Notes: generated by a model not told the origin, from the letters alone. A DNA stretch of 63,810 bases, filler included, from 14 parts of 14 records of this genome joined end to end with filler, not necessarily neighbours in it; one strand, 5' to 3'; positions 3,253-57,990 are shown, counted from the whole stretch's first letter. Program-made: numbers and translations.

Positions 3253-3352
3253 NNNNNNNNNNNNNNNNNNNNNNNNNNNNNNNNNNNNNNNNNNNNTTAA
3301 TTAATTAANNNNNNNNNNNNNNNNNNNNNNNNNNNNNNNNNNNNNNNNNNNN
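3253..3352. other. Artificial contig spacer (first of 13)
   Basis: N-run + TTAATTAATTAA + N-run of 100 bp, repeated at 8070, 12156, 16442, 20679, 23833, 28568, 33800, 37496, 40677, 46756, 56543 and 60405. The 12-mer gives stops in all six frames. Confidence 0.99.
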
Positions 3353-7913: not shown

Positions 7914-8169
7914 CGCCTGATATTGATTACGGCGGTGGCATTGGCCCCAGCCCCCAGCCCAGCTTGGGTTAGGGTGGGGTCTGAGCGCACATTAGACAAC
8001 GCGTACGGTGGCATACTGTTATAGCAGTTATACGCCTGGTTACAGCTGCGAGGCTGTACACTTGGTTTTNNNNNNNNNNNNNNNNNNNNNNNNNNNNNNN
8101 NNNNNNNNNNNNNTTAATTAATTAANNNNNNNNNNNNNNNNNNNNNNNNNNNNNNNNNNNNNNNNNNNN

Positions 8170-12155: not shown

Positions 12156-12255
12156 NNNNNNNNNNNNNNNNNNNNNNNNNNNNNNNNNNNNNNNNNNNNT
12201 TAATTAATTAANNNNNNNNNNNNNNNNNNNNNNNNNNNNNNNNNNNNNNNNNNNN

Positions 12256-16441: not shown

Positions 16442-16641
16442 NNNNNNNNNNNNNNNNNNNNNNNNNNNNNNNNNNNNNNNNNNNNTTAATTAATTAANNN
16501 NNNNNNNNNNNNNNNNNNNNNNNNNNNNNNNNNNNNNNNNNTGCCGTCGACAGCATAAAAAGGCTGCCTTTTTCCCAACATCACTCGGACCCTCTACCAC
16601 GGCCTTTGCGGCTGAGAAAGCCAGCCGAGGTGTCGGACGTG

Positions 16642-19600
16642 ATGGAGGAGGAGGAAGAGGGAGAGGCGTGGGGTACCCGGTCCAGAGGCAACGCCTACTG
16701 GAGCGACGCCGAGCTGTTGGAGTCGCCGACGAGCGACACGCTGCTCCGGGAGATCCTGAACGAGACGGATGAGGAGGTCACCCCCATCATGGGGGTGCCC
16801 GCCCCTCGGGACGGGGACATCCTGCATCGGATCCTCGCCGGTGCCTCCGAACAATCGTCCGAGCTCTTGGCCAGCCTTGCCAAGCTCCCGGAGCTCCCGT
16901 CCTCGTCGGCCGATCTGTCGCAGCACGAGGCCAACCAGCGGGCAATCCAATGGCTGGACGCGCTGCTGGCCGCGGACAGCCACCCTGTGAACGAGCTCCC
17001 ATCCCTGGCCCGCCCTCGGTCGCAGACCAGCACAGCCGAGCTGCTTAAAGTAGACTTGTTTGCCTCACGGCAGGAAATGAACGAGGGGGTGCCGTCCGCG
17101 CTGAGCGTGCACAGCAAGTTCGTGGCTGTTGGGACTAACACCGGCTGTGTGCTGGTGTTTGACTACTTCCAGGCCGAGCGAGCCAGGCTGATGACGCCCC
17201 TGCCGAAGGCGAAGGAGGAGCGGGTGCCAATCTCCACTGTGGCGATCAGCGAAGCAATCCCGGACTGGTTGATGGCAGGCCAGGCCGACGGGACGATGCT
17301 GGTTTGGCACTGGCCGACCCTGGAGCTGATCCAGACCATCAGCTCGGTCCACCTCACCACTGTGGTGCACGGGCTCTTCATCAGCCAGACGGCATTTGAT
17401 AAAGGCCAGTCAATCCTCTCAGGAGACCAGGCGGGAGCTGTCCAGCTCACCAGGGTGGAGAAAGCCTTCTTCCGGGGATTTAAGCATGAGAGCCGAACTG
17501 TCATGGATGGTAAAACCACTGGGCATGTCCTGGCGATGGCAGTGGTGCCTGAGCTAGCTGATAGCATAGTAATGCAGCAGATGAGCGTGATGGCGCTGTG
17601 TACTGAGGATCCTCACCGTGTGACCGAGCTCGGGCCGCAAACATATATTATGCAGCTGTGCCCACACACCAAGATCGTCAGGCAGGCACCCTGCCCGTCT
17701 GGGGTCCGTGAGGGTACAGTGCCCTACCTCTCCTGGATGCAGAGCCCCGCGCCAGCAGATAGTGACGCTGCAGTGTACCTCGGAATTGGCTGGGGACCGG
17801 CATTAGATCTAGTTCAGCTTATTTGCAGCCCACAGGCCAAGCTATCCTTTAACCTAGTAGCCCGAGTGCATGGCGGCTGGCATCTTTGTGGACTCTCGTT
17901 TATTTCACTAGATTTGATTCTGGTCATGAACACCAAGAAGCAGATCAGGCTGCTCAGCTTTCGGCCAAACCATCCTGTAGACGAGCGGCGGCTTGCCGAG
18001 CTTGAGCCGATGGACGCGCCAGCCATGGTTGTGAAGCATCCTTACTACGTGAACGTGTATGGAGAGCCACAGCACTCGTTCCATAACTCGTTGGATGGAC
18101 GCGACAACAGGCTATTTATGCTCGGCTTTGACCAGATCGTCTCGATTAAAGTGCTTCCATGGAGCGTGCGGGTCGATTCGTTGGTCGCGGCTCAGAAATG
18201 GGGGGAGGCAATCAGTTTGCTGATTGAACTTTACGAAGCCGCTGCTGATTGCAAACATTCTGGTACAGTGGTAATTGGGCTGGGACTCAACAAGACCTTT
18301 AAACAGCAAGATATCCGCGCGTTGGCGCCTTCAGTCGTGGATCAATATCTGCTTGCCCCAGAAACCCGGGAGTTACTGCTCAAATCCAAGCACGCAGCTG
18401 AGATAGTCATCACAGAGACAATACAGACTTGCCTGAGCTTGCAACTAACTGAATTCCTCTTCAACGAAGCCCTTGAACGGTTTGAATCCTGCGGTCGTTC
18501 GATGCTCTTTCTCCAACTGCTTGGGCCCTTTGTTCTCAACCAGATAACTACTGTCCTGCCCCTGCATATTATTGAGCTGTTGGCCAAAGCCCCACAGTTG
18601 CACCATCTCGAACTTCTTCTTCTCAACATGACTGTGCCTGCAGAAGACCTCCCTGTGCTGGAAAAGCTTTGCGTGGGTCTCCACATGCACGCTGCTTTGC
18701 TGCACGTGTCTGTTCACCACCCAGCGCGAGCTCTGGGCTTGCTACTCGATGGCATCCGGACCCATCTAGCAGCTGCCCATGATGATGGTTGGACTCCTTC
18801 CGAGGCCTGTAATGCAGCTCAGGTGGTGCTCAGGTGGCTTGAATTTGCGTTCAGCGGGTTGCAGTTCCCGTCAGGCCTGCCTTGTGTCAGTGCTGAAGCA
18901 CCAAACAAGCAGCCGAGTCAGAAGCTACTGAGATCAGTCGACATTATCTCACATCTCTTTAGTTCTGCTGAGGCATGCAGTGAAGGGCCCCTCGAAGTGG
19001 AGGTGCTGCTGTATATCGACGGTGAGCGTACTTTCCATATTCTGAGCAAGGCAATAAAAATCCTGAGCGGATTAAACTCATTCCATTGCCGTCCAACACT
19101 GCAATGGTGTGTGGACAAGCTGATCGAAACATTGAGTTGTGCCAAACTGAGAAGTTTGCTTTGGGACATGTCAGCGGACTTGGTAGTTGACGGTCTGGTG
19201 GTCCTCTCATACAAAAGCAGTTGTGAGCTGTTGGAACACTGCGCTCGAGCCCAAAACTCACCAGTCCTTGTCAAGATGCTCAGCTTCCTGCCTCCTGATA
19301 GCTATGATAGTGACGTGCTCCTCCCATTGCTAGAAGAGGTGCGCTGCTTTGACGCTCTTGCAGTTGCACATAAAGCTGTATCAGAGCCAGCCAAGGTGAT
19401 TGACTGCATGTTAGCGAGGTCTGATCAGACCGAGGAGAGTCGGGCACAGCTTTTTGGGTACATGATGGAGTTAGTAGATTGCTCCTATGATGCCGGCAGC
19501 CCACAGAAAACTGATGATGTGCAGTCGATTCTGAATCAGCACTGGGGTAGGCTAATCGAGCTGGACAAGTCCGCGTTGGCACGATTCGTGCTACTGCACT

Positions 19601-20678
19601 TTTGGGAGGAGCGGTTTAGATTAGGCGAGAGTGTGCGCAAGGACAGTGAAGACTTAGAGTTTGACTACCTTTGGGCGATGGTGCAAGTAAGTCCCGAGTT
19701 GGCAGAGGAGGATCCGAGGAAGGCCAGTGTTCAGGAGATTTTGAAGCCTGTGGGTGTAAGCCGGTTTCTGGAGCTTCTCGCACAGCATTCACCTTGTGAA
19801 GTCTATCGATTCTTGACTGACCATCCAGACACATACGAACTGACTGTGGCTCTCAAAGTTTGCCAGGAGCATGGTCTGCTTGATGCGGAGGCATATGTGC
19901 AGGAGCGAGTTGGCAACCTGTCGCAGGCTCTCCAGCTGCATCTCAAGGCTCTGCAACGCTTGGTCCTCTCTTTAGTCACGCAGTTGGGCAATCGAGTGCT
20001 CAGCCCAGAAGGCGAACCAAAACTTGAGGATGAGCAAGAAGCTAAGATGATCCGAACTTTACGGGGCTCAATGGCAGCAACAATAGCGCTTTGCCAGCAC
20101 ACCTCACAGACCGAGCCTGAAAAGGTTGTTGAACACTGGTTTGCACTGCTTGACGGACTGATCTCGATGGAGCAACCGAATGGAACGCACGAGGGGGAAC
20201 ACGCTTTCAGCATAGTGCAGAAACTGGCAATGTCAATCATTGTCGAGCAGATGGACCATCAAGGCATCGAGGAGGACGAGCAAGGCACCCAGCTGCTGTA
20301 CAGCGTATTTAGACGGATTCTCGTTAAGTACTGTGAGCTGCCTATGGAGCAGTACGTGTCATTTATAGTGAGGCTTTTAGAGCACGTTCAGATGGACCTG
20401 GAACAGAAGACCGGGCTTCTGCAAGTTGAGGCCCACGCTGCTGAACGGGACTAAGCCGCCTGCAGGTGCTGAAGCAGAACACGTTTGATCTGCACCACAA
20501 GTTCCTGAGCGGCTTCAGGAAGGGAGCGTATAGGTCTGGCGGCAAAGTAGACACTATTGATGCTGGCTTGAACCGATCTTCAGAGCACTCGGGGTGGGTG
20601 TCATCATCAGGATCAATTCAAGCAATTGTTAATTCTCATGATACTGAGGACCATGACTTGATTGATGAGTCTCAGGGC
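16642..20678 (+). CDS. VPS8: Vps8 (CORVET subunit), 3' truncated
   Basis: N-terminal WD40-like propeller (FVAVGTNTGCVLVFD), Vps8 central region (W..RV..LV....W.EAI; FL.LL.PFVLN), clathrin-repeat-like LELLAQHSPCEVYRFL...HGLLDAEAYVQERVG; intron near 20427-20465. Start codon uncertain. Confidence 0.85.
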
Positions 20679-21912: not shown

Positions 21913-22025
21913 GCCACTCCGGATCAACACGCGTGTATTGGCTATCATAAATCAGCACCGCGTGCTGCAGTATATAAATCTAGTCACGATATGCTATAGC
22001 TTTGGCCAGGCCAGAGCTGTCTAGC

Positions 22026-22547
22026 TCAAGCGCCCGGGTTGTTGTTGCGCGACTCGCGCGCTCGATGCCTCTCGAGATCGGTGTGCTTGCGCAGCACCCG
22101 GGACACCCGGCTGTGCTCGTGCGCCTCGGCCCGTTTCAGCGCCGTGTGCCCGTTCTTGTCCTTCAGGTCGGCGTCCGCCCCGGCCTCCAGCAGCGCGATG
22201 ACTATGCCCTTGTGGCCCCTGGTGGCGCTTAGAATCAGCGCGGTCCGGCCGTCGGCGTCGGCCTTGTCCGGATCGGCCCCGGCCTGGAGCAGCAGCTTGA
22301 CCGCCTTCTCCTGCAGGCTGTCGGCGGCCACCATCAGCGGGGTCATCTCGTCGTACGGCCGAGGCTTGTCGATCCTGCCAGTCCCGACTGCCGCTTGCAG
22401 CACCGGCAAATTGCCACATTTGGCTGCCTTGTACAGGTCTCCCCGTTGCGCCCGGCCCACCGCCGCCAGATCCGCCTCCAGCGCCCCCAGGTCCGGGTCG
22501 GTCCTCCTTTCGACGACTCTGCGATCACTCGACGCCTCATTCCCCAT
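22026..22547 (-). CDS. Ankyrin-repeat protein with N-myristoylation-like start
   Basis: MGNEASS start; TPLMVAA...LLLQAGADPD, GRTALILSA...LLEAGADAD, GHTALKRA repeats. Confidence 0.88.
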   Translation of the reverse strand: MGNEASSDRRVVERRTDPDLGALEADLAAVGRAQRGDLYKAAKCGNLPVLQAAVGTGRIDKPRPYDEMTPLMVAADSLQEKAVKLLLQAGADPDKADADGRTALILSATRGHKGIVIALLEAGADADLKDKNGHTALKRAEAHEHSRVSRVLRKHTDLERHRARESRNNNPGA

Positions 22548-22577
22548 TTTGTCGTTACTGTGTGGCGGAGTCAGCGA

Positions 22578-23111
22578 ATGGATCAGGTCCAGGCGGAGGT
22601 GCGCTGGGGCTGAGGGCTGGGCAGGTGCTGCCGCTGCTGGCGGGGCAGCGGTCCGGGCTGGACAAGTCGGTGGTGTTCCACACCCGTCTGGTGCTGCTAG
22701 TCCAGGCCGTCTTCCTGCTGATGCTGGACGGCTCGCTCGCCCACCTGCTCCTCCGCGGGCTGCAGCTGGTGCCTCCGCCGCCGCCAGGCGCCCACCCGGC
22801 CGGCAGGTCTTCCTGGCGCAGCCGCGCAGGTTCCGGCAGAACCCGACTGTGAGTGTGATGGTGCTTGGAGTCTCCACCTTCCCAGGCGCCCCCGCGCTGC
22901 CCGAGGCCGAGGCTTACCGTAGCCCGCAGTGCTGTGGGGACATCTAACAAGCGACTGGGGCCCGCCAGTGGCAATCCTGTTCGCCGCCCGGCGTGAGTGG
23001 CCGGCCGGCTCAGGCTGACCGGGTGGGGCAGCCACCCAACCTCGCTGGTGGCTCGCACTGCTCACCGATATGGTTGTGCTAGCCCTGCAGTTGTTCCTCC
23101 TTAACTCCTAG
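22578..23111 (+). CDS. 124-aa membrane protein, 4 introns; DUF1746/Dsc4-like
   Basis: Introns 22587-22624, 22769-22806, 22886-22929 (GC-AG) and 22993-23031 leave exactly 125 codons, including LLMLDGSLAHLLLRGLQL and LALLTDMVVLALQLFLL. Not visible as a single ORF in the track. Confidence 0.65.
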
Positions 23112-28428: not shown

Positions 28429-29009
28429 CGATCAAAGAGGCCGCTCGTGACGAAGTGCTCTATATAAACTATTTAAACTATTTACTCTAGCTCTCCCTAG
28501 CCAGAATGGATTTGACATTAGATTGCCCGACGTCAACAACAATTACAACATTGTTGAGTCCCCGGCCNNNNNNNNNNNNNNNNNNNNNNNNNNNNNNNNN
28601 NNNNNNNNNNNTTAATTAATTAANNNNNNNNNNNNNNNNNNNNNNNNNNNNNNNNNNNNNNNNNNNNCGGCGGGCCCGCAGATGCACCACCAGGGTCCGC
28701 TCTGGAAAACGGGCAGCGCTGTTTCTCCATCCCCAGCCTCAGAAAGTTTCTCCAGTTTCTTCATTCAGTTCAGGAATTCGAACTGCAGACCCCGCGGCCA
28801 TCGCATCTCCTCTCCTTTAATTTGGGCGTCTTAAGCTATACTGAGGGTCTGCCTTAGTCTGTCTTGAGGAGAGCTGTGAGGCCCTCCATAGCTAGTACGT
28901 ATATGAGTGGGGATTTGTATCGATTTATTAGTATGGATTTAAAACTTTCAAATTTGTCTGACACTATCTGTCAGACACCTGACACCTGATTACACTTGAT
29001 AGTTTTCTT

Positions 29010-31158
29010 TCAAGAAAAGAATGTTTGATGCCACCGGGTTCGCATAACTGGGGTCGAGTCGCGATCACTATCCACGTGCTGTGGACTGGCTTGTTTCAAA
29101 CGAATGTGTATCTCTTGGCTGGAATCTTCAAGCTTGCTGAGGTCTTGATTGCTCATTGTCATTGGATGAGCTAGCCCCAGGAATTTTTCCATTTCCAACT
29201 GCTGCGCTGCAAGCACATGCCTGGGCAGCTGACTCTCATGGCGCTTTTGAAAAATCAAATACGCTTTGACGTGCACGCTCAGTTGTGTGCAAAATCTCTC
29301 GATTTGCCTGATTGATTGTCGGGCCAAGTCGTCCAAATCATCTTCTTCCAGAGCTCGCGCTTGCAGCCTGGCTGCTTCTGAAGCCAGCTGGCCAACCGAC
29401 AGCGCCCACACGTGTACTGCCCAGCTGTCCGAGAGTCTCAGCGACAAAGTGAGGGGGCGGGGGTCACCTCGAGGCGTGCTTGAACTCTGTCGCGCTGAGT
29501 AGCTGAGACAAGGCCGCGATGTTGTCTCCAAGTGAATTGCTGGCAGCTGAGCCGCTCTTTTTCACCGCCTAGCCCCCAGAATCAGTACTACAGCCCAACT
29601 AGGCTGTCACCGTGACAGCAGCCTTCCAGGGCCGCATGATGCAATCGATGCTGCGTCCATGGCCTTCGGCAACACCCAGTGCAGCCGAGGGCACTAGTAC
29701 ACCAACCAGTGCAGCAACAACCATCCCCAGCCTCTCACAGCCTAAGCCTAATAGCTGATCTGACCATAGATGCTTGGATTCGCTCCCGGCGAGCGGCCTC
29801 GGCCCACCCCGACTCGAAGGCAGCTCGCCAACCAACATCAGAGTCAACCGAACCACTCCCAGCCTCACTTTGCGCGCTTGCTCCACAACTGCTTGCCAGC
29901 ACCCGAAACCGTACCGGATCCAAAAACCCGCACAGAGCAGCCCCCAGCGCCGCATCGCCAGCGCCATCCGGTCCACACTCCACAGCAACGCCGCTCTGTC
30001 CTCCAGCTGCCCCGCACCGGATCGACTCTGTACAACCCACTGCCACTGCTGCATCGCCAGCGTCATCCGCCTCACAGCCCAAAGCAGCACCGCCCGCCAG
30101 TGCATCTCGAGCCGACTGGCCTGGCTCTGCTGTTGTCCGACGAGCATGCGCCACCGAGCCACTGCCCCAATCAGCCGGCATGCCAGCCAGTGAGTCTCCG
30201 CGTCCAGCGCCTGCAACCGAGCCTGGCGCCTCCGGAACCTTTTCCATCCGCGGTGCAGCTGCACTACGCACCAGTGCACAGCAGCCCGTGTTTCATGCGC
30301 CTGCACAGCCCATACCGACCAGCAGGCCGCCAGCTGGTTGAGTCGCCGTCTGGCGAGATGAGTTTCGCTCGCCCGATCGAGCCCGCCGGCAAGCTGTGCG
30401 CCCACCCACCATTGATCCCAGCACCTCTCGACCGCCCAGTCCCGCCGGTCCTCACGGTGCCGGGTGACCAGATCGTCTCGCGCTGCGCCGGCCTCAGCCT
30501 GGTCGCGCCAGGAGTCCCATCCGCGCTGGCATCGCCGATTGCGCGCCCTTGACAGTTGATGCTCGCTCAGACGATCCAGAATGCTCTCGTCACGCACACC
30601 CGTCCGCCATAGCGCCAAGTACCGGCGCCACCTCTTGGTCCGCGCCCGGCCTAGTTGCCGCTCGCACCAGCCCCGGCGCTCCGCGCGTTCGACCGCCCTT
30701 TGCCAGGCCGTCCAGCTGCCGCGGAGCACCGTGCGACGGTAAGTGAAGGTCCCGAGCCAGACCCGGCGCAGCTCCTCGGCCAGCTGGCAGCTCCACTCCC
30801 GCCAGCCCCGGAGCACCGTTCGGAGAGTCCCGTCCGTCACACAGATCTCCGGCTCTAGCCACAATGGCGGAGCCGCCGGCCCAAACTGGCCCTCTGCAAG
30901 GTACTGGCGGGCCAACGGGTCCCCGGCCTCAGCGGCGGCCCGGTAGCACTGGCCGGCCTGGGCCAGGTCCCGGGGCACCCCGCGGCCCTCCTCGAGCATC
31001 AGGGCCAGGTTGACTAGTGCCGGCACGTGCCCCAACCCGGCCGCCTGCCGGTACAGACGGGCTGCCGCCGGTGCATCCTCCCGCCCCGCGAACCCGCGGG
31101 AGCCCGGGTCCAGCGCCCGCCCCCGGAGGAATAGCTCTACCCCGCTCGGAGGTACCAT
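29010..31158 (-). CDS. Protein with N-terminal Sel1 repeats followed by Trp-periodic Sfi1-like repeats
   Basis: AARLYRQAAGLGHVPALVNLALMLEEGRGVPRDLAQAGQCYRAAAEAG (Sel1), then more than 10 periodic W motifs (LRGWREW, RGSWTAWQ, RGWDSWR, LAMQQWQ). 3' exons (29010-29800) are not precisely resolved. Confidence 0.6.
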
Positions 31159-31222
31159 GCTACGCCCCCACCAGGCGTCCTAGCCTCGCCGTGTCGGTTG
31201 GTGAGCCGCCGCAACGGCCGAG

Positions 31223-32203
31223 TTCATCAGTCCACGGACGGCCGCGCTGGCTGATCAGTTGAGCCAGGCCGACCAGGAGGTCGAGGAGGCCTCAGCTGAG
31301 CTCGAGCAGCAGCAGATGGAGCAGCAGAAACAGCGTGCCGTGCTCGAGGAGGAGCTGCGCGAGAAGGTCGAGGGGCTGCTCTCCCAGCTGAACGTGTCAC
31401 GGAGGGAGCTGGCCGCCGCCAGGGAGCAGAATGCCGAGTGGAAGCAGAAGCACCTGGCTCTGCATGAGCACTGCATCCAGCTGACTGAGCAGCTCGAGGC
31501 GACCACCGTGGAAGCGGCCGAATGGGAGGCCAAGTGCTCCTCACTCAGGGTGATGTACGAGGCGGCTGATGCACGGGCAGGGGAGTGGGAGGATAAGTGC
31601 GACCACAGCAAGGCAGACCATGCAGATCTGGCAACCAGTCAGGCGGCAGTGTGGAGGAGTAAGTGCGCAGAGCTTGAGCTCCAGCTTCAAGAGGCGCGGG
31701 ATGCGGGCGAGAATGATTCAATGCAGTGCCACGACACAATACGGGAACTGGAGGGTAGGCTGCGGACTGCAGCAAAGGACCGGATGGCTGAACTAGACCA
31801 GTGGGAGCGCGAGGAGCGCAGGGCTAGCACGATGGAGAGCAAGATCGCTGAGCTGACGAGCGCGCTCGGTGACGCTGAGCGCCAGAGCGTACATGCGGAT
31901 TCTAGTATAAATGCGCTGCAGACCAGGCTTGTTTGCGCGCTCAGCTCGTTAATGGTCTCTCTGAAGCTGTTAGTCAGGCTGGCTGTCAAAGTCAGGCAGA
32001 TGCTCCCTTCGATGGGCGACTCTGCTGTGTTGTTGGGTTTCATGGTGAACTCGTTCGCTGGCTGTGTTGAGAAGCGCGAAGCTCAGATGGAGAGTGCGCC
32101 GCTCTTCTGCAGCAAGATAGGCCTTGTGGATACACTGCCGGACGAGGTTTTGTTAGCGATCGACTTAGTCGACACAATTGCCGGAGATTCCAACGAACAC
32201 TAG
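31223..32203 (+). CDS. Coiled-coil protein, start unresolved
   Basis: E/Q/A/L-rich heptad ORF of more than 300 aa; an in-frame TGA at 31202 and no nearby ATG imply an upstream exon. Confidence 0.7.
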   Translation, partial: FISPRTAALADQLSQADQEVEEASAELEQQQMEQQKQRAVLEEELREKVEGLLSQLNVSRRELAAAREQNAEWKQKHLALHEHCIQLTEQLEATTVEAAEWEAKCSSLRVMYEAADARAGEWEDKCDHSKADHADLATSQAAVWRSKCAELELQLQEARDAGENDSMQCHDTIRELEGRLRTAAKDRMAELDQWEREERRASTMESKIAELTSALGDAERQSVHADSSINALQTRLVCALSSLMVSLKLLVRLAVKVRQMLPSMGDSAVLLGFMVNSFAGCVEKREAQMESAPLFCSKIGLVDTLPDEVLLAIDLVDTIAGDSNEH

Positions 32204-32391
32204 TTCTAATCGATCCCGCGATCTTACGCTAATCGGAGAGATTGCAATTTTAAAACACACTATATAGATCCATCAACAGAAGTCGAGGAGTAGTAGTCGA
32301 GTCTAAAAGTCTACTTACAATCGTACATACTCGTAATAATTGTTGGTCAACGGCTGTCCGCTCTTACGTCGGTTACCGGTAACTGACAGTC

Positions 32392-32883
32392 ATGTCGGGC
32401 CTCGGGTGTGCGATTCCAACTAGCTGGCGGACCGGGGTCTCGCCGGCTCCCGGCTGCGGCCCGCCGGAAGTGGCGCCTGACCAGCCGCCCGAGCTGGAGG
32501 ATCTAGCGGTGGATCTTGACCCCCATGTGGAGGAGCTGTCAGACTCTGTGATCGGGGAGAGCGAGCTGGCCGAGCTGGAGGGTGTGCAGCAGCTCACACC
32601 GGCGGAGGTAGAGGCGCTATCAAACCCGTTACCTGAGCGGTCCGGGGAACTGCCCGTCGACGAGGACCCGGCTCTGGCGCGAGCGCTGACCACCAGTGTT
32701 GTAAAGGCGCTGGCGGCGGATCTTGATCTTCAGGAAAGTAAAGCTCGGCTGTGCGATTCATCGGCCAGGGCGCTGGCCGCAGAGCTTGAGCTGGCCGACT
32801 CGGAGGCGGCACTCACGCGGTCGGTGAAGGCCAAGGGCTTGGCGGCCGAATTAGAGAGGACGGATGCTAGGAGGGGTCTATAA
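32392..32883 (+). CDS. Acidic hypothetical protein with UIM-like motifs
   Basis: 163-aa ATG-initiated ORF flanked by AT-rich DNA; DEDPALARALTTS and related helical repeats. Confidence 0.5.
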   Translation: MSGLGCAIPTSWRTGVSPAPGCGPPEVAPDQPPELEDLAVDLDPHVEELSDSVIGESELAELEGVQQLTPAEVEALSNPLPERSGELPVDEDPALARALTTSVVKALAADLDLQESKARLCDSSARALAAELELADSEAALTRSVKAKGLAAELERTDARRGL

Positions 32884-33443
32884 GTGATCGAGTCTGTCGC
32901 GGAGTCGCGGCTGATCTCGATCACAGCACATAAAGTCATTTTACATAGGCAGGTGCCAAACAGACCTCGCTTTTTATAACTTGGAACTTGAACATTTATT
33001 CGATTGCTTGTTGTATATGAATTCCGGAATTCATTCGACGGCTTGTTGTAAACACCGTCACACCGATACACCCCTTCTAAAGTTTGCAACAGATACGTCA
33101 ATTCCTACATCATCAGTGCAAGATAGGTGTGAGAATGGGCGGGTCGAAAACTTTTGAGAAAGCTAATTGTACGTAAGAGGTTGGGTAGATAGTCAGCTGC
33201 TCACTTGTGTATCGAGAATAGGCCATAGGCAAGTTGGATCTGGACATCAACGCTGGCGCTAGTAACTGGACCCAGTCGACCATCGTTCGACCATCATGTC
33301 TGGGCAGAACCCTAGAGCCTCAGCTACAGGCACGTTGTGGGCACAACGTGGCTTGCCCCCTTGCTCGGGCTTTGAGGAAAACGTCTTCACGGCACACTCG
33401 AGCAAACCCACACGGGAAGGTTCGCCGGTCCCAGCGGAGGGAG

Positions 33444-33799
33444 CTACGGGGCCATTGGGTGGTGGCACAGCGGGCAGGTGTCCTTTTTACAGAGCCACTG
33501 TTCAATGCACGCCTTGTGAAACAGGTGAAAGCAAGCCAATCGCGCCACCTGGTCGCCCGGTTCGTAATCGCCAAGACATACCGAACAGTCCCGCTGGTCG
33601 GCAGGCAACTGACAGATCGAAGCCTGGTCGAGCACGCTGCAGGCTGCCAGCTGCTCCACGCTGCGCGCCCGGCCATGTGCCTGTGCGGGCGCCGGCTGGG
33701 CGGGCACCGCGGCGGCGGGGGGGTGGTGCGGGTTGTGCGCCGGGCCGCTGGCCATGGCGTGCTCCCGGCAGCAGAAGTTATGAAGGACCCCACGCTGGA
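33444..33799 (-). CDS. RING-H2 E3 ligase, 3' part
   Basis: CSVCLGDYEPGDQVARLACFHLFHKACIEQWLCKKDTCPLC is a canonical C3H2C3 RING. Confidence 0.88.
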
Positions 33800-33967
33800 N
33801 NNNNNNNNNNNNNNNNNNNNNNNNNNNNNNNNNNNNNNNNNNNTTAATTAATTAANNNNNNNNNNNNNNNNNNNNNNNNNNNNNNNNNNNNNNNNNNNNT
33901 TATTTCTCTATACTCAATCGCATGATTCGGTACTAAATTAATACTTCATGATCTCATTACGCAATGC

Positions 33968-36900
33968 CTATTCATCGCGAGGAAGCCCAATTGCCTCTTG
34001 TTGTATCCTCATTGTTGGCTCAAGCGAGCCGTCATCTATTTCGAGCCGAGAGAGTGCATCTAGCAATTCATCTCTGTCAGTAGACGCGGCTTCGGCTTGC
34101 GAGCCTTGCTCCTCCAACGGTGGTAACGGGCATCCAATATAGCCGCCATGGTCACGGCAATGTCTGAGCAACGCTCGCCAGTTGGGCTCTGTAGCAAGCA
34201 CTACAGGACTTCCGACCACAATCAGCAGTGCCTGTGCCCTCGTGATGGCTACATTGAACCGCTTCTCATTGCACAGAAAGCCAAGTGAGTGTCTAGCGTC
34301 AGCCTCAAGAAACTCACTGTTGGCCCGCACAGTGCTCAGAATCATAACACGCCGCTCGCCACCCTGGAATTGTTCAGTCGAACCCACCATGATCCTTCTC
34401 GCGTCTTTCCCATCGACCTCCCCTAGGACCTGCAGAGCAAGCCTGATCTTTTGTACTTGCTTCTGATATGGAGCAATGATTCCGATTTGGTCAGGTTGCA
34501 GCGGGTTACGGCGGGTCTCCAAGAGCCTGCAACCAATGAAACTTAGATATTGCACAGCACAGTAGTGTTCAAACCTTTGCACATAGTCTCGGACTATCTC
34601 GACTTCATGGCGGTTGAACCACGATGGCGAATTTCTGTCCCCATCTCACTCAGTAGCTGCCCAGGGCAGATGCTGTCACCCTTCGCGCTCGTCTTTGCCT
34701 TCAATCCCATGGAATATCATCGGAAACCCTGCCGAAGGAAGGTGCTCCCAGTCCACCATTGCGTGAGAGACTAGCTCATCGGCGCAAGCCTGTAGCTCAC
34801 TGTCATAGAACAGTCTATCCGGAAGACTGAGGATGTGATGGTGCGAGCGGTAGTTTCTGATCAATTTTGTGATCAACCGCCGATCATACCCACCAGGCTG
34901 CCGTTGGTAGGGCTCTCTTAGGCTCATGCGTTCCAGCAACGACTTGTCAAGGCCGAATCTGCCGCCTAACGGCGACAGAATAATTGGTCCAAGCTGTCTG
35001 GGATCTCCAGCAAGGACCAACTGCCCGCCCGCGTGTGGATCCAACATATTGGCTACTACAGAGATAGCCTCTGGCTCAGGGGCTTGTCCCGCTTCGTCGA
35101 TTGCCACCATTTGGAAATCCCCAGGATTTAAGCCGAGTTGGAAATACAGCTTTGAAGCTGAAGCTAATGTCGCCACAACGACTGACTTTGACATCAGCTG
35201 CTCGACGGTGGGCAGCATAAAATGGTCGGACTCTTCAGGATCCTCTATGCAGTACTTAATCACATCGGAGTCGACATCATGCTTGCTCCTGGAGTATGCC
35301 ACCACACGCATGAGCGTTGATGGCGACATGTGACAACCAAGGCGTTTACAGATCATGTCAGCTGCTGTGTTCGACGGCGCGCATGCTAAAACTCTGAAAT
35401 TGTGACCAAAGAGGCGGTGAGCCTGCACAATAGCCTCTACAAATGTGAAGGTCTTTCCCGTACCAGGTGGGCCAAAGATGATGTATGGAGCAGGCCGCCC
35501 ACAACCTTCGAGGATACACTTCACTGCTTCGCGTTGCTCAATATTGAGCTGCCGGTTCTGGAATTCAACATTCTCAGGGATTGTGCGCGGAGGCTGACAA
35601 CAAAATCCCGGGGAAGGGAACAGCAGGTGCGTGGTTAGATGGTGTGCTGCATCCTGCAGTGCCTCGTGCTGGATCTGGAACATCGTGCGCGGCAGGCTGA
35701 ACTCAACATCGACTTTGAGCCCGTGCATCCAACTCTGGTGAAATGATGGATGAAAGCGAAGCACAACCCTATCGCGCTCAATCCTGTGTGCGAATCCTAT
35801 GTGCTTCCTCGAAGCGGCTTCTGAGGGGACTCGCACATACACTCGGTCACCACGAAGGACAGACGGTCGATTCTCAGACAACCCAGGTACCTCAAGCGCC
35901 AGCTCACGGGCTGTGACCAGTGCCAGGACAGTGCCATCCATGTCAAACTGCCGAATATCAATCAGCTGTTGTACCTCCTCGCCCCAAAGAAGCTGCTTGA
36001 AATACTGGGCATAATTACCAAACTCAAGCCCTTGTTTCAACTGACGTTCCACTAGTCCGAACTGAGAACGAAACTCTGCTGGAATTGAATGCTTGTCGAC
36101 GCTCCTTGCCCATCGAAGCTTGCTCGTGTTGCCGGCCGGCTGCACGCCTATTGTAACCTCCTCATGAGCAGCACGAGGCTTGCGGGGTGGTCGTTTGGCG
36201 TAAGGCTTGACCGGCTTCAGAACATCATGCAGATCCGAATCGCCTCCAGCAATCTCACAGAATCGTCCAATCGAGAACGCGCTAGTTGCAGCTGGAAATT
36301 GAAACCTGATTTCGAGCAAGCCCCGTGTGATCCCCTGCGTTGCTGTGCATTTGATCATGACGTCTGTCGAATCAGCTGGTCCCATCAAGTACGGCAGCTC
36401 TTCTGTACAAAACGCCGTCAAGTCTCCCATGGCGGATAGCCAATTCAACGCTGTGAGCATCACACGCTGACCAGATCTGTTCTCCACCCTCATTCCTAAC
36501 ACCACTGGCTGGCCTGGCCGGTAGCAGTCGGCTGTGTCAAGAGGTTCGAGCTCAATGCCATTCTTGTCGGCCTCCATGATGGTCCGATTCTGCTTGACCC
36601 TCTCGGAGACCGTTGTGCGCTGAGACTGTGCACTCACCCCAGGCTGGTCGTCGATCGCCCAAACCACTACTGACGCCGAATCCTGACGCTTCTTCTTCCT
36701 GATCTTTTTGGTCTGCTGAAGGTGCCTAAACACACGCGCAAACGACCCACGGTGCGAAGTTGTATCCTTCCATCGATTGTACAGCACCCTGAACACATCA
36801 CGATCCTCGCATTGCCTCCGCAGCTCCGCGTCCACTCGGATCTTTGTATAGAACTCCTCGGCCGCCGCCTGCGCCGGATCCACCTTCGGCGGGGTGGCCA

Positions 36901-37300
36901 CAGCACGGCGGGGCTCTCCGACCGGAGCCTCGTTCCCATCAATCTCCTGGATCTGGAGCACCTGCACCTGCGAGGCCCGCAGCACGCACCACTCCATATT
37001 CGGGGAGACCGAGGTCTGGTCAGTCCGGCACGCATCGAACCCCTGCTGCTGCCAGCTCGCGTCCCCCGCCGCGCAGTACTTTGGCTTGACGAACGTGATC
37101 AGCACCGAGATGAGACCTCCCGTGGTCCCGCCGTGCCGCTCCAGATTTGCGGCGAACCGGCGCGCCTTATCCTCACGCGCAACGTACACCCCGGGGCCGA
37201 GCAGCCCGTCTTCGGACGTCTTGAACCCGTCATGCAGGATCTGTACCGCCGAGTCCCACGAGGTTCCGTGGTACATCTTGAGCGTGGTCAGCGGCGGCAT
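33968..37300 (-). CDS. Gig2-like ADP-ribosyltransferase domain fused to a MOV10/SDE3-type SF1 RNA helicase, 2 introns near the 3' end
   Basis: N-terminus MYHGTS...GFKTSEDGLLGPGVYV...EWCV. Helicase motifs LEVPGLSENRPSVLRGD, GPPGTGKT, CAPSNTAAD, DEAGQ, GDPRQLGP, NYRSH, spliced EGNSPSWFN, EQFQGGER, RFNVAITRA. Confidence 0.92.
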
Positions 37301-37722
37301 GTTGCGTCGTCGGCAGTGTGAGAGGCCTCTCTCACGTCCGTCTGCAGCCGGCGTCTCTCAGCGTGCTCAGCACGCGTGCTGAAGTTCGGGCTGAGCTGTC
37401 CTGCCGTTTTAATTGTCGGGAAGCAATGCATGCAGGCGCGCATGCAGGCGAGCATGCGAACGAAGCAGGCGAAGGGCGCGGGGCTGATAGAGGGCNNNNN
37501 NNNNNNNNNNNNNNNNNNNNNNNNNNNNNNNNNNNNNNNTTAATTAATTAANNNNNNNNNNNNNNNNNNNNNNNNNNNNNNNNNNNNNNNNNNNNCGCGC
37601 GCTTCTGCTTCAGCCATCTTCGGAGCTGAGCGGTTGTGGAGCACAACGGCCGGGTCTGTGCAGAGCATAGGGACTCCCCTGTGCTCTAGCAGCGCTATGC
37701 GTACGTAGCTGCTCTTGATCTA

Positions 37723-56542: not shown

Positions 56543-56838
56543 NNNNNNNNNNNNNNNNNNNNNNNNNNNNNNNNNNNNNNNNNNNNTTAATTAATTAANN
56601 NNNNNNNNNNNNNNNNNNNNNNNNNNNNNNNNNNNNNNNNNNATTAAACTAATGATTTTTCGCAAAAAAAAACCACAAGCACTGGTCAGTTAACCAAGGA
56701 CATGGAAACCAACGGTTACACAACAGATTTCATGCCGTGAACGTGAGGTAAAAACAAGTCACACCAGTTAAACGCAAATGAAACTGGGGCAACCAGCCGC
56801 CTTCTCCCGCAGGTGGGCCCGTACTGCCCGTCACCAGC

Positions 56839-57990
56839 ATGCTGCTCCACCTGCTGCTGCTCTCCAGCCTCCCCCTGGCCGCCCCGGTGGCCTGCCCGCT
56901 CCCACCGACGCTCTGCCTCGAGAACGCCACCCGGTCCGACTGGGGGCCGGTGCCGCTGGCCACCGGGCTGGCCTACCTGCGACAACTGCTGCAGCAGGCA
57001 GTGGTGGTGGAGCATAGCACTATCCCCCTGTACCTGACCGCTCTCTATTCGATTCACAATGGCTCGTCCCCAGCCGCCGCGGCCATACGAGGGGTGGTGA
57101 TCGAAGAGATGCTTCACATGACTACCGTGTGCAACTTGCTGAACGCGGTGGGCGGTTCACCTGCAATCGATACGCCCGAGTTCATACCGCGCTACCCTGT
57201 GGAGATCCCGCTGATCAAGCAAGTTGCCGGGATCAGCAGATTTGACCGCCAGTCAGTCCGGCAGTTTGTGCAGATAGAACTGCCGCCAACCGGGCACAAG
57301 TCGATACTGGGCTGGTATGAATACTGCGCAATGCTGCTCAAAGCGCTTTGTGTGGAGCACGGCGAGGCGCGCGTCTTCACTGGCAACTCTGCTCTCCAAG
57401 TGAGCATCGCTGCTCATGTGAGCTCTTCGAGTGAGCTCGCTCAGCCTATCCTTGGGCTGGATCAGGCGGTGGCAGCCTTGAATGGCGTGGCCGAGCAAGG
57501 AGGCGGCTGCCCGGTCCCAGGCGACAAGCAAGACGCCCAGCCTGATGCTGGGCCGCTAGGAGGTGGTCTGGCACATTTCGCTAGGTTCACTGAGATTCTC
57601 GAAGAGAGAGAGTTTGCACCCGGCGACACTGCCAGCACCGGCCCCACAGGTCGGGCCCGGCCGACCGATTGGGAGCATGTCTATCGGTTCTCTCCAAACC
57701 CGCGCCTGGGAGCGTTGGAGCCTGGCACGATCGAGCATAGGCGGAGCCTCCTTTTTGCCTCCAATTACACCCAACTGCTGGTGAAGCTGCACACGGCCTT
57801 CAACGGTGCGCCAGAGACAATCATGCAGACAGTGGGTCAAATGTACGCACTGCGGGGTCTGGCGGTGCAACTGATGCAAACTCCAGACCCTCGGCGACCT
57901 GGTTGGGGCCTCGGACCACCTTGGGAGTATGTGGCTCATGCGTCTGAGTTTGCAAGGCGATCCGCTCGGCGATTAGATGGGTCGCGATAG
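56839..57990 (+). CDS. Secreted ferritin-like protein of the VioB/iminophenyl-pyruvate dimer synthase C-terminal type
   Basis: LQQAVVVEHSTIPLYLTALYSI...GVVIEEMLHMTTVCNLLNAVGGSP, F.QIE.P, EQGGG, AHFARF; N-terminal signal peptide; intronless. Confidence 0.85.
   Translation: MLLHLLLLSSLPLAAPVACPLPPTLCLENATRSDWGPVPLATGLAYLRQLLQQAVVVEHSTIPLYLTALYSIHNGSSPAAAAIRGVVIEEMLHMTTVCNLLNAVGGSPAIDTPEFIPRYPVEIPLIKQVAGISRFDRQSVRQFVQIELPPTGHKSILGWYEYCAMLLKALCVEHGEARVFTGNSALQVSIAAHVSSSSELAQPILGLDQAVAALNGVAEQGGGCPVPGDKQDAQPDAGPLGGGLAHFARFTEILEEREFAPGDTASTGPTGRARPTDWEHVYRFSPNPRLGALEPGTIEHRRSLLFASNYTQLLVKLHTAFNGAPETIMQTVGQMYALRGLAVQLMQTPDPRRPGWGLGPPWEYVAHASEFARRSARRLDGSR

Follow-up and report, generated by a model that had tools for sequence, protein, structure and literature searches.

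Can one gene of a marine protist join an ADP-ribosyltransferase (ART) domain, of the kind known from the fish antiviral protein Gig2, to an RNA helicase of the MOV10 type, and if so, what would such a protein do? The question is raised by a locus on the minus strand (33968-37300) of a 63,810-base stretch of DNA, here called the window, which an initial annotation had read as such a fusion. Judged by its sequence, the locus is a real nuclear gene and belongs to a marine eukaryote that has not been cultured; it encodes a Upf1-like SF1 helicase of the MOV10/SDE3/Armitage type with an N-terminal ART. The component families are known, and the proteins are already present, unannotated, in public collections. 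As the best explanation of the whole we lean, if only slightly, towards a MOV10-type helicase whose tethered Gig2-type ART would mark the ribonucleoprotein to which the helicase is bound.

The window consists of 14 contigs (each 3.1-9.7 kb, with a GC content of 0.51-0.67) that were artificially concatenated. Linkers of the form N44-TTAATTAATTAA-N44 separate them, for example at 3253-3352, 8070-8169, 12156-12255 and 16442-16541, and at nine more places. Since short contigs were joined artificially here, gene adjacency across the linkers has no biological meaning and cannot serve as genomic context. The gene-bearing contig spans 33900-37495 (3596 bp) and has such a linker on each side. The public sequencing runs that have words in common with the window (20 rows, 14 studies, best share 0.27) come without exception from marine, seawater or aquatic metagenomes.

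Gene structure and the two halves of the protein

The union of ART and helicase was borne out, and both halves are recognized far above chance: the ART half has 446 relatives, and the helicase half matches the Pfam families MOV-10 beta-barrel (E 9e-21) and AAA_11 (E 1.5e-26). Reading the DNA resolved the locus into a three-exon gene with two GT..AG introns (45 and 48 nt). Its main part is an 874-codon open reading frame (ORF) at 34676-37300 (minus strand, as all parts of this gene), with its ATG at 37300 and a TGA at 34676-34678; a second minus-strand ORF of the locus covers 33968-34390. Upstream, 195 nt (37301-37495) separate the start codon from the contig end, and an in-frame stop 19 codons 5' of the ATG closes the open frame.

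Exon 1 (34680-37300; codons 1-873 plus two bases) encodes the ART, a linker, the MOV10 N-terminal modules, RecA1 and the start of RecA2. Intron 1 (34635-34679, 45 nt) would bring in an in-frame TGA if it were read through. It is followed by the 60-nt exon 2 (34575-34634), which encodes the conserved NSPSWFN segment of RecA2, and by intron 2 (34527-34574, 48 nt), whose removal restores colinearity with the closest homologue, P0156. Exon 3 (33968-34526) completes RecA2 with motifs V and VI (AAA_12 E 7.7e-26) and ends, past an acidic C-terminal tail, with the stop codon (33968-33970). The spliced coding sequence of 3240 nt comprises 1079 codons plus the stop, and its 1079-aa product is colinear with P0156 over both splice junctions. 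The initial annotation had the ART running without a stop or an intron into a full helicase. This stands for the ART region, the MOV10 N-terminal modules and RecA1, all of which lie inside the single uninterrupted ORF, but the helicase is complete only after the two introns have been removed.

The Gig2-type minimal H-Y-E ART domain occupies residues 5-124 (36929-37288), with H11 at 37268-37270, Y39 at 37184-37186, F49 at 37154-37156 and E103 at 36992-36994. In an exhaustive HMMER search of 1.84 billion cluster representatives, a 140-aa ART query found 446 relatives at E<=1e-3, of which 207 reach E<=1e-10 and 60 reach E<=1e-30; the best 150 of the 446 are 72-894 aa long. When the query is aligned with 29 short members, H11, G12, G32, G37, Y39, A46, A50 and E103 are invariant (30/30); the H, Y and E are likewise invariant in 77/77 aligned members of the family.

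The fold of this domain had been set beforehand as a test on which the reading could fail, and the domain modelled as an ART. An AlphaFold2 model built from the 30-sequence alignment has a mean pLDDT of 93.1 and a pTM of 0.85. Compared with the PDB by Foldseek, it has the catalytic domains of PARP4, PARP2 and tankyrase as its top matches (E ~1e-6, TMq 0.61-0.72). An independent all-against-all VIA scan of 48,161 chains placed tankyrase 2 first (Z 11.1, 121 aligned residues, root-mean-square deviation 3.0), followed by PARP1 (Z 11.0), PARP2 (10.7) and PARP3 (10.5), and the first 30 rows listed are all PARP-type domains or ADP-ribosylating toxins. A profile of the ART family pointed the same way among solved structures, with PARP12 (E 9.1e-5), PARP3 (9.6e-5), PARP10 (1.2e-4), PARP15 and PARP14 in front and 19 PARP sequences matched at E<1e-3. 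The family's HGT[ST] and GxGxY motifs align with the catalytic His and Tyr of PARP12 and PARP3, and E103 was placed by motif.

These results bear on the possibility that the fusion is real and its ART is a regulatory or pseudo-enzyme module, which would sense NAD+ or ADP-ribose, switch the helicase by auto-modification or serve as a protein-protein adaptor, as in the inactive PARP domains of ZAP and TASOR. Inactive PARP-like domains do score alike in the VIA scan (PARP13 Z 9.6, the TASOR pseudo-PARP Z 8.0), the domain is minimal (~120 aa against ~200 for the Pfam PARP profile), and one version of the ART sits within a helicase core, between RecA1 and RecA2, at a position fit for allosteric control. 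The H, Y and E, on the other hand, are kept not only in the 30 and 77 aligned members but also in every helicase-linked copy, and such invariance marks active sites under selection and sets them apart from pseudo-PARPs. We therefore hold a non-catalytic module to be quite unlikely, and an active ART that marks its surroundings remains the reading we prefer.

The N-terminal domain had been called Gig2-like with its H, Y and E intact, and the helicase MOV10-like and intact; all of this proved correct, for the helicase after splicing. For the former, two matches of the 140-aa query bear the Gig2 name at NCBI: P0056 (E 8.7e-32), whose cluster includes a "GCRV-induced gene 2e protein" of Astyanax, and P0081 (E 8.5e-28), a "GCRV-induced gene 2o" of Mustelus. 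Both are multi-unit vertebrate proteins, and a local ART hidden Markov model (HMM) covers at least 95 positions of each tandem unit. It is through such tandem units that two of the vertebrate proteins pass the Pfam PARP threshold (P0081 with 96.5 bits, and P0094, an amphibian PARP-domain protein, with 115.6 bits). The motifs HGT[ST], LGxGVY, KA..[FY] and ME.C occur in all helicase-linked units and in most vertebrate ones. The homology extends over the whole unit of about 115-120 aa, and the relationship to PARPs is weak but real.

Passages of PMC3617106 describe Gig2 as a large interferon-induced family of fish and amphibians, of which a zebrafish member protected cultured cells from virus when overexpressed. 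Its unit is described there as a part with a weak PARP signature followed by a conserved C-terminal part, present in stand-alone form or in tandem proteins of 2 and 4 units, and a few homologues are already listed from marine metagenomes, Emiliania huxleyi and one further alga. The same passages contain no report of an enzymatic activity, a mechanism or a substrate for Gig2. Part of PMC5512222 counts Gig2 among the ARTs that modify proteins and are akin to PARPs and to the cholix and diphtheria toxins. The unit in the window differs from Gig2 in being fused to a 950-aa helicase and in its host, a protist instead of a fish or an amphibian.

A viral lead to the ART domain came from a protein atlas, where the clusters nearest to 36911-37300 (minus strand) by language-model features are PARP-domain proteins of ~100 aa that bear the label Nucleocytoviricota, with scores of 0.94 and 0.93. 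When viral contigs were scanned twice, no relative was confirmed (none of 4 pattern matches with the single protein, none of 40 with a 7-sequence alignment), so the atlas label stays an unverified lead.

Past the ART, a Pro/Ala-rich linker (residues 125-149; 36854-36928) leads into the MOV10-family N-terminal region (residues 150-452; 35945-36853), which is homologous to the post-exonuclease region of P0156 and also has its homologue in P0158. Within it lie two sub-threshold Pfam matches, Ig-like at residues 262-349 (PF21633, 18.9 against a cut-off of 27.4 bits) and helical at residues 411-451 (PF21635, 21.8 against 24.8 bits). The MOV-10 beta-barrel (PF21634) follows at residues 453-534 (35699-35944) with 73.6 bits against a cut-off of 23.6. 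RecA1 (AAA_11) covers about residues 584-780 (34961-35551) and carries the Walker A motif GPPGTGKT (35450-35473), motif II DEAGQ (35084-35098) and motif III GDPRQL (residues 765-770; 34991-35008). RecA2 (AAA_12) is split over the exons, its exon 1 part matching with E 6e-7. Aligned with vertebrate MOV10 and protist relatives, motifs I, II and III, the FQGGE-containing motif V and the TRA-containing motif VI are all intact.

A search with the whole ORF scored 8000 candidates, of which 2366 have E<=1e-10, and the named proteins among the best 120 helicase matches are MOV10, mov-10-B or SDE3. The window protein shares with animal MOV10, plant SDE3 and fly Armitage the beta-barrel, AAA_11, AAA_12 and the five motifs, shows in addition the weak, sub-threshold Ig-like and helical matches, and is 44-46% identical to vertebrate MOV10 over the helicase core. 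It differs from MOV10 in that PF21632 (MOV10 N-terminal), which precomputed Pfam lists give for most animal matches, has no match here, in its N-terminal ART, and in its place in a protist clade that is separate from the animal MOV10 clade and stands beside it.

Related architectures and the recurrence of the union

The nearest relatives of the helicase are protist proteins in which a 3'-5' exonuclease precedes a MOV10-like helicase. They are 41% identical to the window protein over 780 columns and 55-56% over the core, and their domain order past the N-terminal module is the same. Where they bear DNA_pol_A_exo1 (PF01612), sometimes together with a DCD domain, the window protein has its ART in the same slot. 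The exonuclease is found at the N-terminus of P0156, P0161, P0162, P0165, P0172, P0177, P0186 and P0198; other N-termini among the helicase relatives are DCD plus exonuclease (P0157) and CSD (P0218). Since close helicase relatives bear such different modules, the N-terminus behaves as a swappable effector slot, filled here by an ART. The joining of a DEDD 3'-5' exonuclease and a MOV10-like helicase in one chain seems to be common in marine protists.

Is the union with an ART a single event? By a local HMM search, 7 of the best 120 helicase matches contain an ART. In P0158 (1279 aa) the ART lies at residues 56-175 and is followed by a PDZ domain and then by the MOV10-like helicase, whereas in P0159 (1341 aa) it is inserted between AAA_11 and AAA_12, that is, between RecA1 and RecA2 (residues 941-1060). 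The inserted type is further represented by the fragments P0077, P0167, P0168, P0169 and P0171, and the cluster of P0167 has 45 member sequences, on many contigs. Seen from the other side, MOV10-like sequence is present in 4/155 proteins of the ART search, namely P0077, P0131, P0042 and P0044. In P0131 the AAA_12 domain (13-224) precedes the ART (336-468), which is thus C-terminal. P0042 and P0044 have an N-terminal ART and then a MOV10 N-region. The ART of the window is 46-51% identical to the other helicase-linked ARTs and 57-61% identical to the ARTs of its best matches, none of which matched the helicase probe.

A tree of 31 helicase cores (IQ-TREE) places the window helicase with the exonuclease-bearing P0156, P0161 and P0162 (SH-aLRT 89, within a clade marked 98*), groups P0158 with P0186 and P0198, and gives the inserted-ART type a clade of its own. 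The ART label requires 3 changes on this tree, at least 2 of which are forced by well-supported branches. An approximately unbiased (AU) test rejects a single ART clade (delta log-likelihood 139, p 1.8e-59), with the caveat that the definition of the ART group followed the inspection of a first FastTree. Taken as a whole, the alignments and the tree indicate that the ART and MOV10-like families have been joined repeatedly and separately, with the ART in three positions.

The claim that no protein of this architecture had been described holds for print only. No description of an ART-MOV10 or a Gig2-helicase fusion was found in full-text literature (supplementary tables, e.g., Table S1 of PMC3617106, lay outside its scope), but the window protein is not unique, as at least three other unannotated metagenome groups combine an ART with a MOV10-like helicase. 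The nearest published statement, in a part of PMC8195603, is that TRADD-N proteins of cnidarians and brachiopods can be fused to Mov10, in a differing architecture.

The ART family has other partners as well. Among the 77 ART members of at least 280 aa, the partners matched at E<=1e-4 include UPF0515 (4), CSD (2), zf-CCCH (2), C2H2 (2), helicase (2), DCD (1) and PDZ (1). Fingers of the zf-met and JAZ types came to light in an additional search, and a local search found an SHFL-like C-terminal region in 7 ART proteins. In other metagenomes we observed the ART with the UPF0515 region (C19orf66/SHFL/IRAV) on its C-terminal side (P0309, P0075, P0030, P0022, P0095, P0063 and P0051). Other RNA-binding modules in the family are zf-CCCH in P0038 and P0048, CSD in P0005 and P0033, dsRNA-type zinc fingers in P0009 and P0314, and DCD in P0098; the form with CCCH and ART resembles the layout of PARP12 and ZAP. 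The fusions with UPF0515, CCCH, CSD and fingers show that the ART keeps company with RNA-surveillance modules that are separate antiviral proteins in vertebrates.

ZAP (PARP13), PARP12 and SHFL offer a close parallel to this arrangement, as they combine a PARP-type domain with an RNA-binding module and have MOV10 as a helicase partner; ZAP associates with MOV10. The difference is that these are separate polypeptides in vertebrates, whereas ART and helicase form one chain here. Moreover, the PARP domain of ZAP lacks the catalytic triad, and the ART of the window retains its H-Y-E. As for the RNA-binding partner, human IRAV is presented in passages of PMC5309953 as an interferon-induced antiviral RNA-binding protein that interacts with MOV10.

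A bacterial counterpart can be seen in the Mokosh system, whose MkoA model (PDLC03920) matches the helicase core with E 3.4e-17 in exon 1 and E 4.6e-23 in exon 3. The match fits the relationship between MOV10L1 and MkoA described in parts of 10.1101/2022.12.12.520048, which also mention that MkoA is joined to MkoB in some E. coli proteins. The two systems share a single-chain logic of helicase plus enzymatic effector. They differ in that the effector of Mokosh is a phospholipase D (PLD) nuclease (MkoB) instead of an ART, in that the match is limited to the helicase core, and in that the window gene is eukaryotic and contains introns. There was no PLD family among the Pfam matches of the window protein, and the contig has no neighboring gene that could supply one.

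Integrity of the junction

How certain is it that ART and helicase belong to one molecule of DNA? Four runs, each from a different study, provided Logan contigs for alignment to 33900-37495; one of these runs may be the source of the assembly itself. Record 8 of run X4 covers 36762-37000 with zero mismatches and bridges the junction, with 72 nt in the ART and 92 nt in the helicase-homologous part. Record 2 of X1, which belongs to a different study, covers 36825-37067 with 1 mismatch and spans the linker plus 29 nt beyond it, and record 12 of X5 covers 36746-36896.

The GC content at third codon positions (GC3) is ~0.85 in the first 130 codons of the gene and ~0.55 later on. As a sign of a chimera this shift was rejected, as other long ORFs of the bin show an equal 5'-to-3' fall: 16543-20451 (0.80, 0.81, 0.81, 0.67, 0.56 etc.), 56782-57987 (0.84, 0.71, 0.61, 0.60) and 22000-22944 (0.86, 0.79, 0.57). 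The gradient is thus a trait of these genes and not of the junction. Bridging contigs and shared gradient together leave no sign of a chimera.

An assembly or gene-model artefact is nonetheless one alternative to be weighed: metagenome assembly would then have fused two genes of separate loci or organisms, one for a stand-alone Gig2-like ART and one for a MOV10-like helicase. The contig is short and comes from a binned metagenome assembly, the drop in GC3 separates ART codons from helicase codons, and the window protein itself is absent from the listed protein-collection matches. A scan of metagenome_contigs with residues 1-300 likewise gave no second full-length or junction copy; its 55 pattern matches led to 4 confirmed loci that share the ART part only (52-56% identity, with query residues up to 155). 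Against this, the 874 codons are open across the junction, a Logan contig from another study crosses the boundary without a mismatch and a second one spans the linker, and the GC3 gradient is common to the other genes of the bin. The homology to helicases, furthermore, begins at residue 150 when compared with P0156 and at residue 135 when compared with P0158, at most ~25 residues past the end of the ART (~124), at the place where relatives switch their N-terminal modules. Finally, the N-terminal arrangement is found again in the independent P0158 and in the fragments P0042 and P0044. In view of this we regard an artefact as highly improbable and treat the fusion as real.

Several further points weigh against the fusion as we read it, along with the missing second copy and the late definition of the ART group in the AU test. 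The gene is the sole one on its contig and has no genomic context. Logan coverage is patchy and leaves 36543-36643, 36015-36321, 35062-35418 and the contig ends uncovered, although a hole proves nothing. Contigs from RNA libraries lie at 36322-36472 and 36644-36794 only, downstream of the ART, and may stem from DNA carry-over; they cross no intron and stop short of the ART, so that they neither show nor disprove expression of the fusion. The ART alone does not reach the Pfam PARP cut-off (PF00644, E 0.01, 15.8 against 26.7 bits), its match to ART-PolyVal is below threshold as well (E 0.069), and a single-sequence search of PDB sequences (E<=10) gave two chance-level matches (HisF E 0.35, lipase E 1.1) and no ART, an uninformative outcome that the family profile has since superseded. 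A close orthologue with the same architecture was not found either: P0156, P0161 and P0162 bear the exonuclease, and P0158 is 36% identical and stands elsewhere in the tree.

Some other contents of the window may be mentioned in passing. The ORF at 16543-20451 (plus strand) is a 1303-codon frame encoding a homologue of Vps8 (beta-propeller E 1e-24), a eukaryotic endosomal tethering protein, and its GC3 runs from 0.80 to 0.55. Two long ORFs of a hybrid polyketide synthase/non-ribosomal peptide synthetase, in which ketoacyl synthase, condensation, AMP-binding and PP-binding domains were seen, take up the whole of the 9.7-kb contig at 46856-56542 (minus strand); the GC3 of this contig is flat at ~0.5 and differs from that of most other contigs in the bin. 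On the contig 28668-33799, a 103-aa ORF (33444-33755, minus strand) has a RING-H2-like Cys/His pattern by eye and is unrelated to the ART-helicase gene.

Possible function and wider meaning

What might the protein do? MOV10-type helicases restrict viruses and retroelements. Under the explanation that we favor, the helicase would load on a target RNA, which may be a viral, retroelement or silencing-pathway transcript, and would translocate along it. The ART, held by a flexible linker of ~25 residues, could then mono-ADP-ribosylate whatever the helicase meets, using NAD+. Its substrates would most likely be proteins of the bound ribonucleoprotein and less likely phosphorylated RNA ends, and the modification may mark or inactivate the ribonucleoprotein within RNA silencing or antiviral defense. 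It is from the RNA-surveillance partners of the ART that we infer a modification of components engaged by the helicase. Enzymatic activity, substrate and biological role are plausible by analogy throughout, which is a further point against this explanation; the role of sensor and effector against viruses or transposons, proposed in the initial annotation, is one that we infer purely from relatives.

The choice of substrate leads to a second possibility, in which the fusion is real and the ART modifies nucleic acid, namely the phosphorylated ends of the RNA threaded by the helicase, with a mark or block taking the place of degradation by the sister exonuclease. PARP10, PARP11, PARP15 and TRPT1 ADP-ribosylate phosphorylated RNA ends in vitro, and PARP10 and PARP15 are, next to PARP12 and PARP3, among the best matches of the family profile in solved structures. 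The slot occupied by the ART holds a nucleic-acid enzyme in the nearest relatives (the exonuclease PF01612), and the partners of the ART family are mostly RNA-binding modules. In contrast, the grouping of Gig2 with protein-modifying ARTs (in the part of PMC5512222 cited above) points to proteins, and the domain is mildly acidic, with an isoelectric point (pI) of 5.9 and no evident nucleic-acid-binding surface. We thus consider modification of RNA ends unlikely. That the pI gives no sign of direct RNA binding by the ART also counts against our own explanation, but as a hint on RNA binding the value is uninformative; the family spread is 5.6-9.5 (median 7.9 over 178 domains).

A fusion that is real and active might also serve housekeeping RNA metabolism (mRNA decay, small-RNA biogenesis or stress-granule control), or act as an NAD+-consuming switch for abortive infection. 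By the abstract of PMC8799784, MOV10 also has general roles together with Argonaute and UPF1. The contig, for its part, shows no link to mobile elements or viruses, and the two scans of viral contigs gave no relative. Yet fusions in three positions and the swapping of N-terminal modules (exonuclease, DCD, ART) form the usual pattern of conflict systems, and the relatives whose biology is known are antiviral, both Gig2 (PMC3617106, in part) and the MOV10-binding IRAV (PMC5309953, in part). We would give this possibility only a minor chance, and marking of the helicase-bound ribonucleoprotein by a tethered ART remains the preferred explanation.

If that explanation holds, the mechanism would be a helicase-guided ADP-ribosylation, which is new for both families. 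How MOV10-type helicases hand over their targets to effectors is only partly known, and the fusion supplies a concrete hypothesis for this step. The occurrence of both families in a single chain, in three topologies, is the kind of evidence that has earlier predicted functional partnerships.

In marine protists, the ART shares a chain with MOV10-like helicases, with SHFL/IRAV-like domains and with CCCH or dsRNA-type fingers, and these unions may have arisen several times and separately. The vertebrate antiviral repertoire (Gig2, MOV10, SHFL and CCCH-PARP) may thus in part go back to much older modular roots in protists. More tentatively, and as a possibility that we deem doubtful for now, Gig2-type ARTs could provide the enzymatic activity of an ancient RNA-surveillance toolkit shared across eukaryotes, with the protist fusions as Rosetta stones for interferon-induced vertebrate proteins that are separate and interact. 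In that case Gig2 and MOV10 of fish would be expected to work jointly, through helicase-guided ADP-ribosylation, on ribonucleoproteins of viruses or retroelements. The value of the present fusion would then lie in being such a Rosetta stone between Gig2-type ADP-ribosylation and MOV10-type RNA surveillance.

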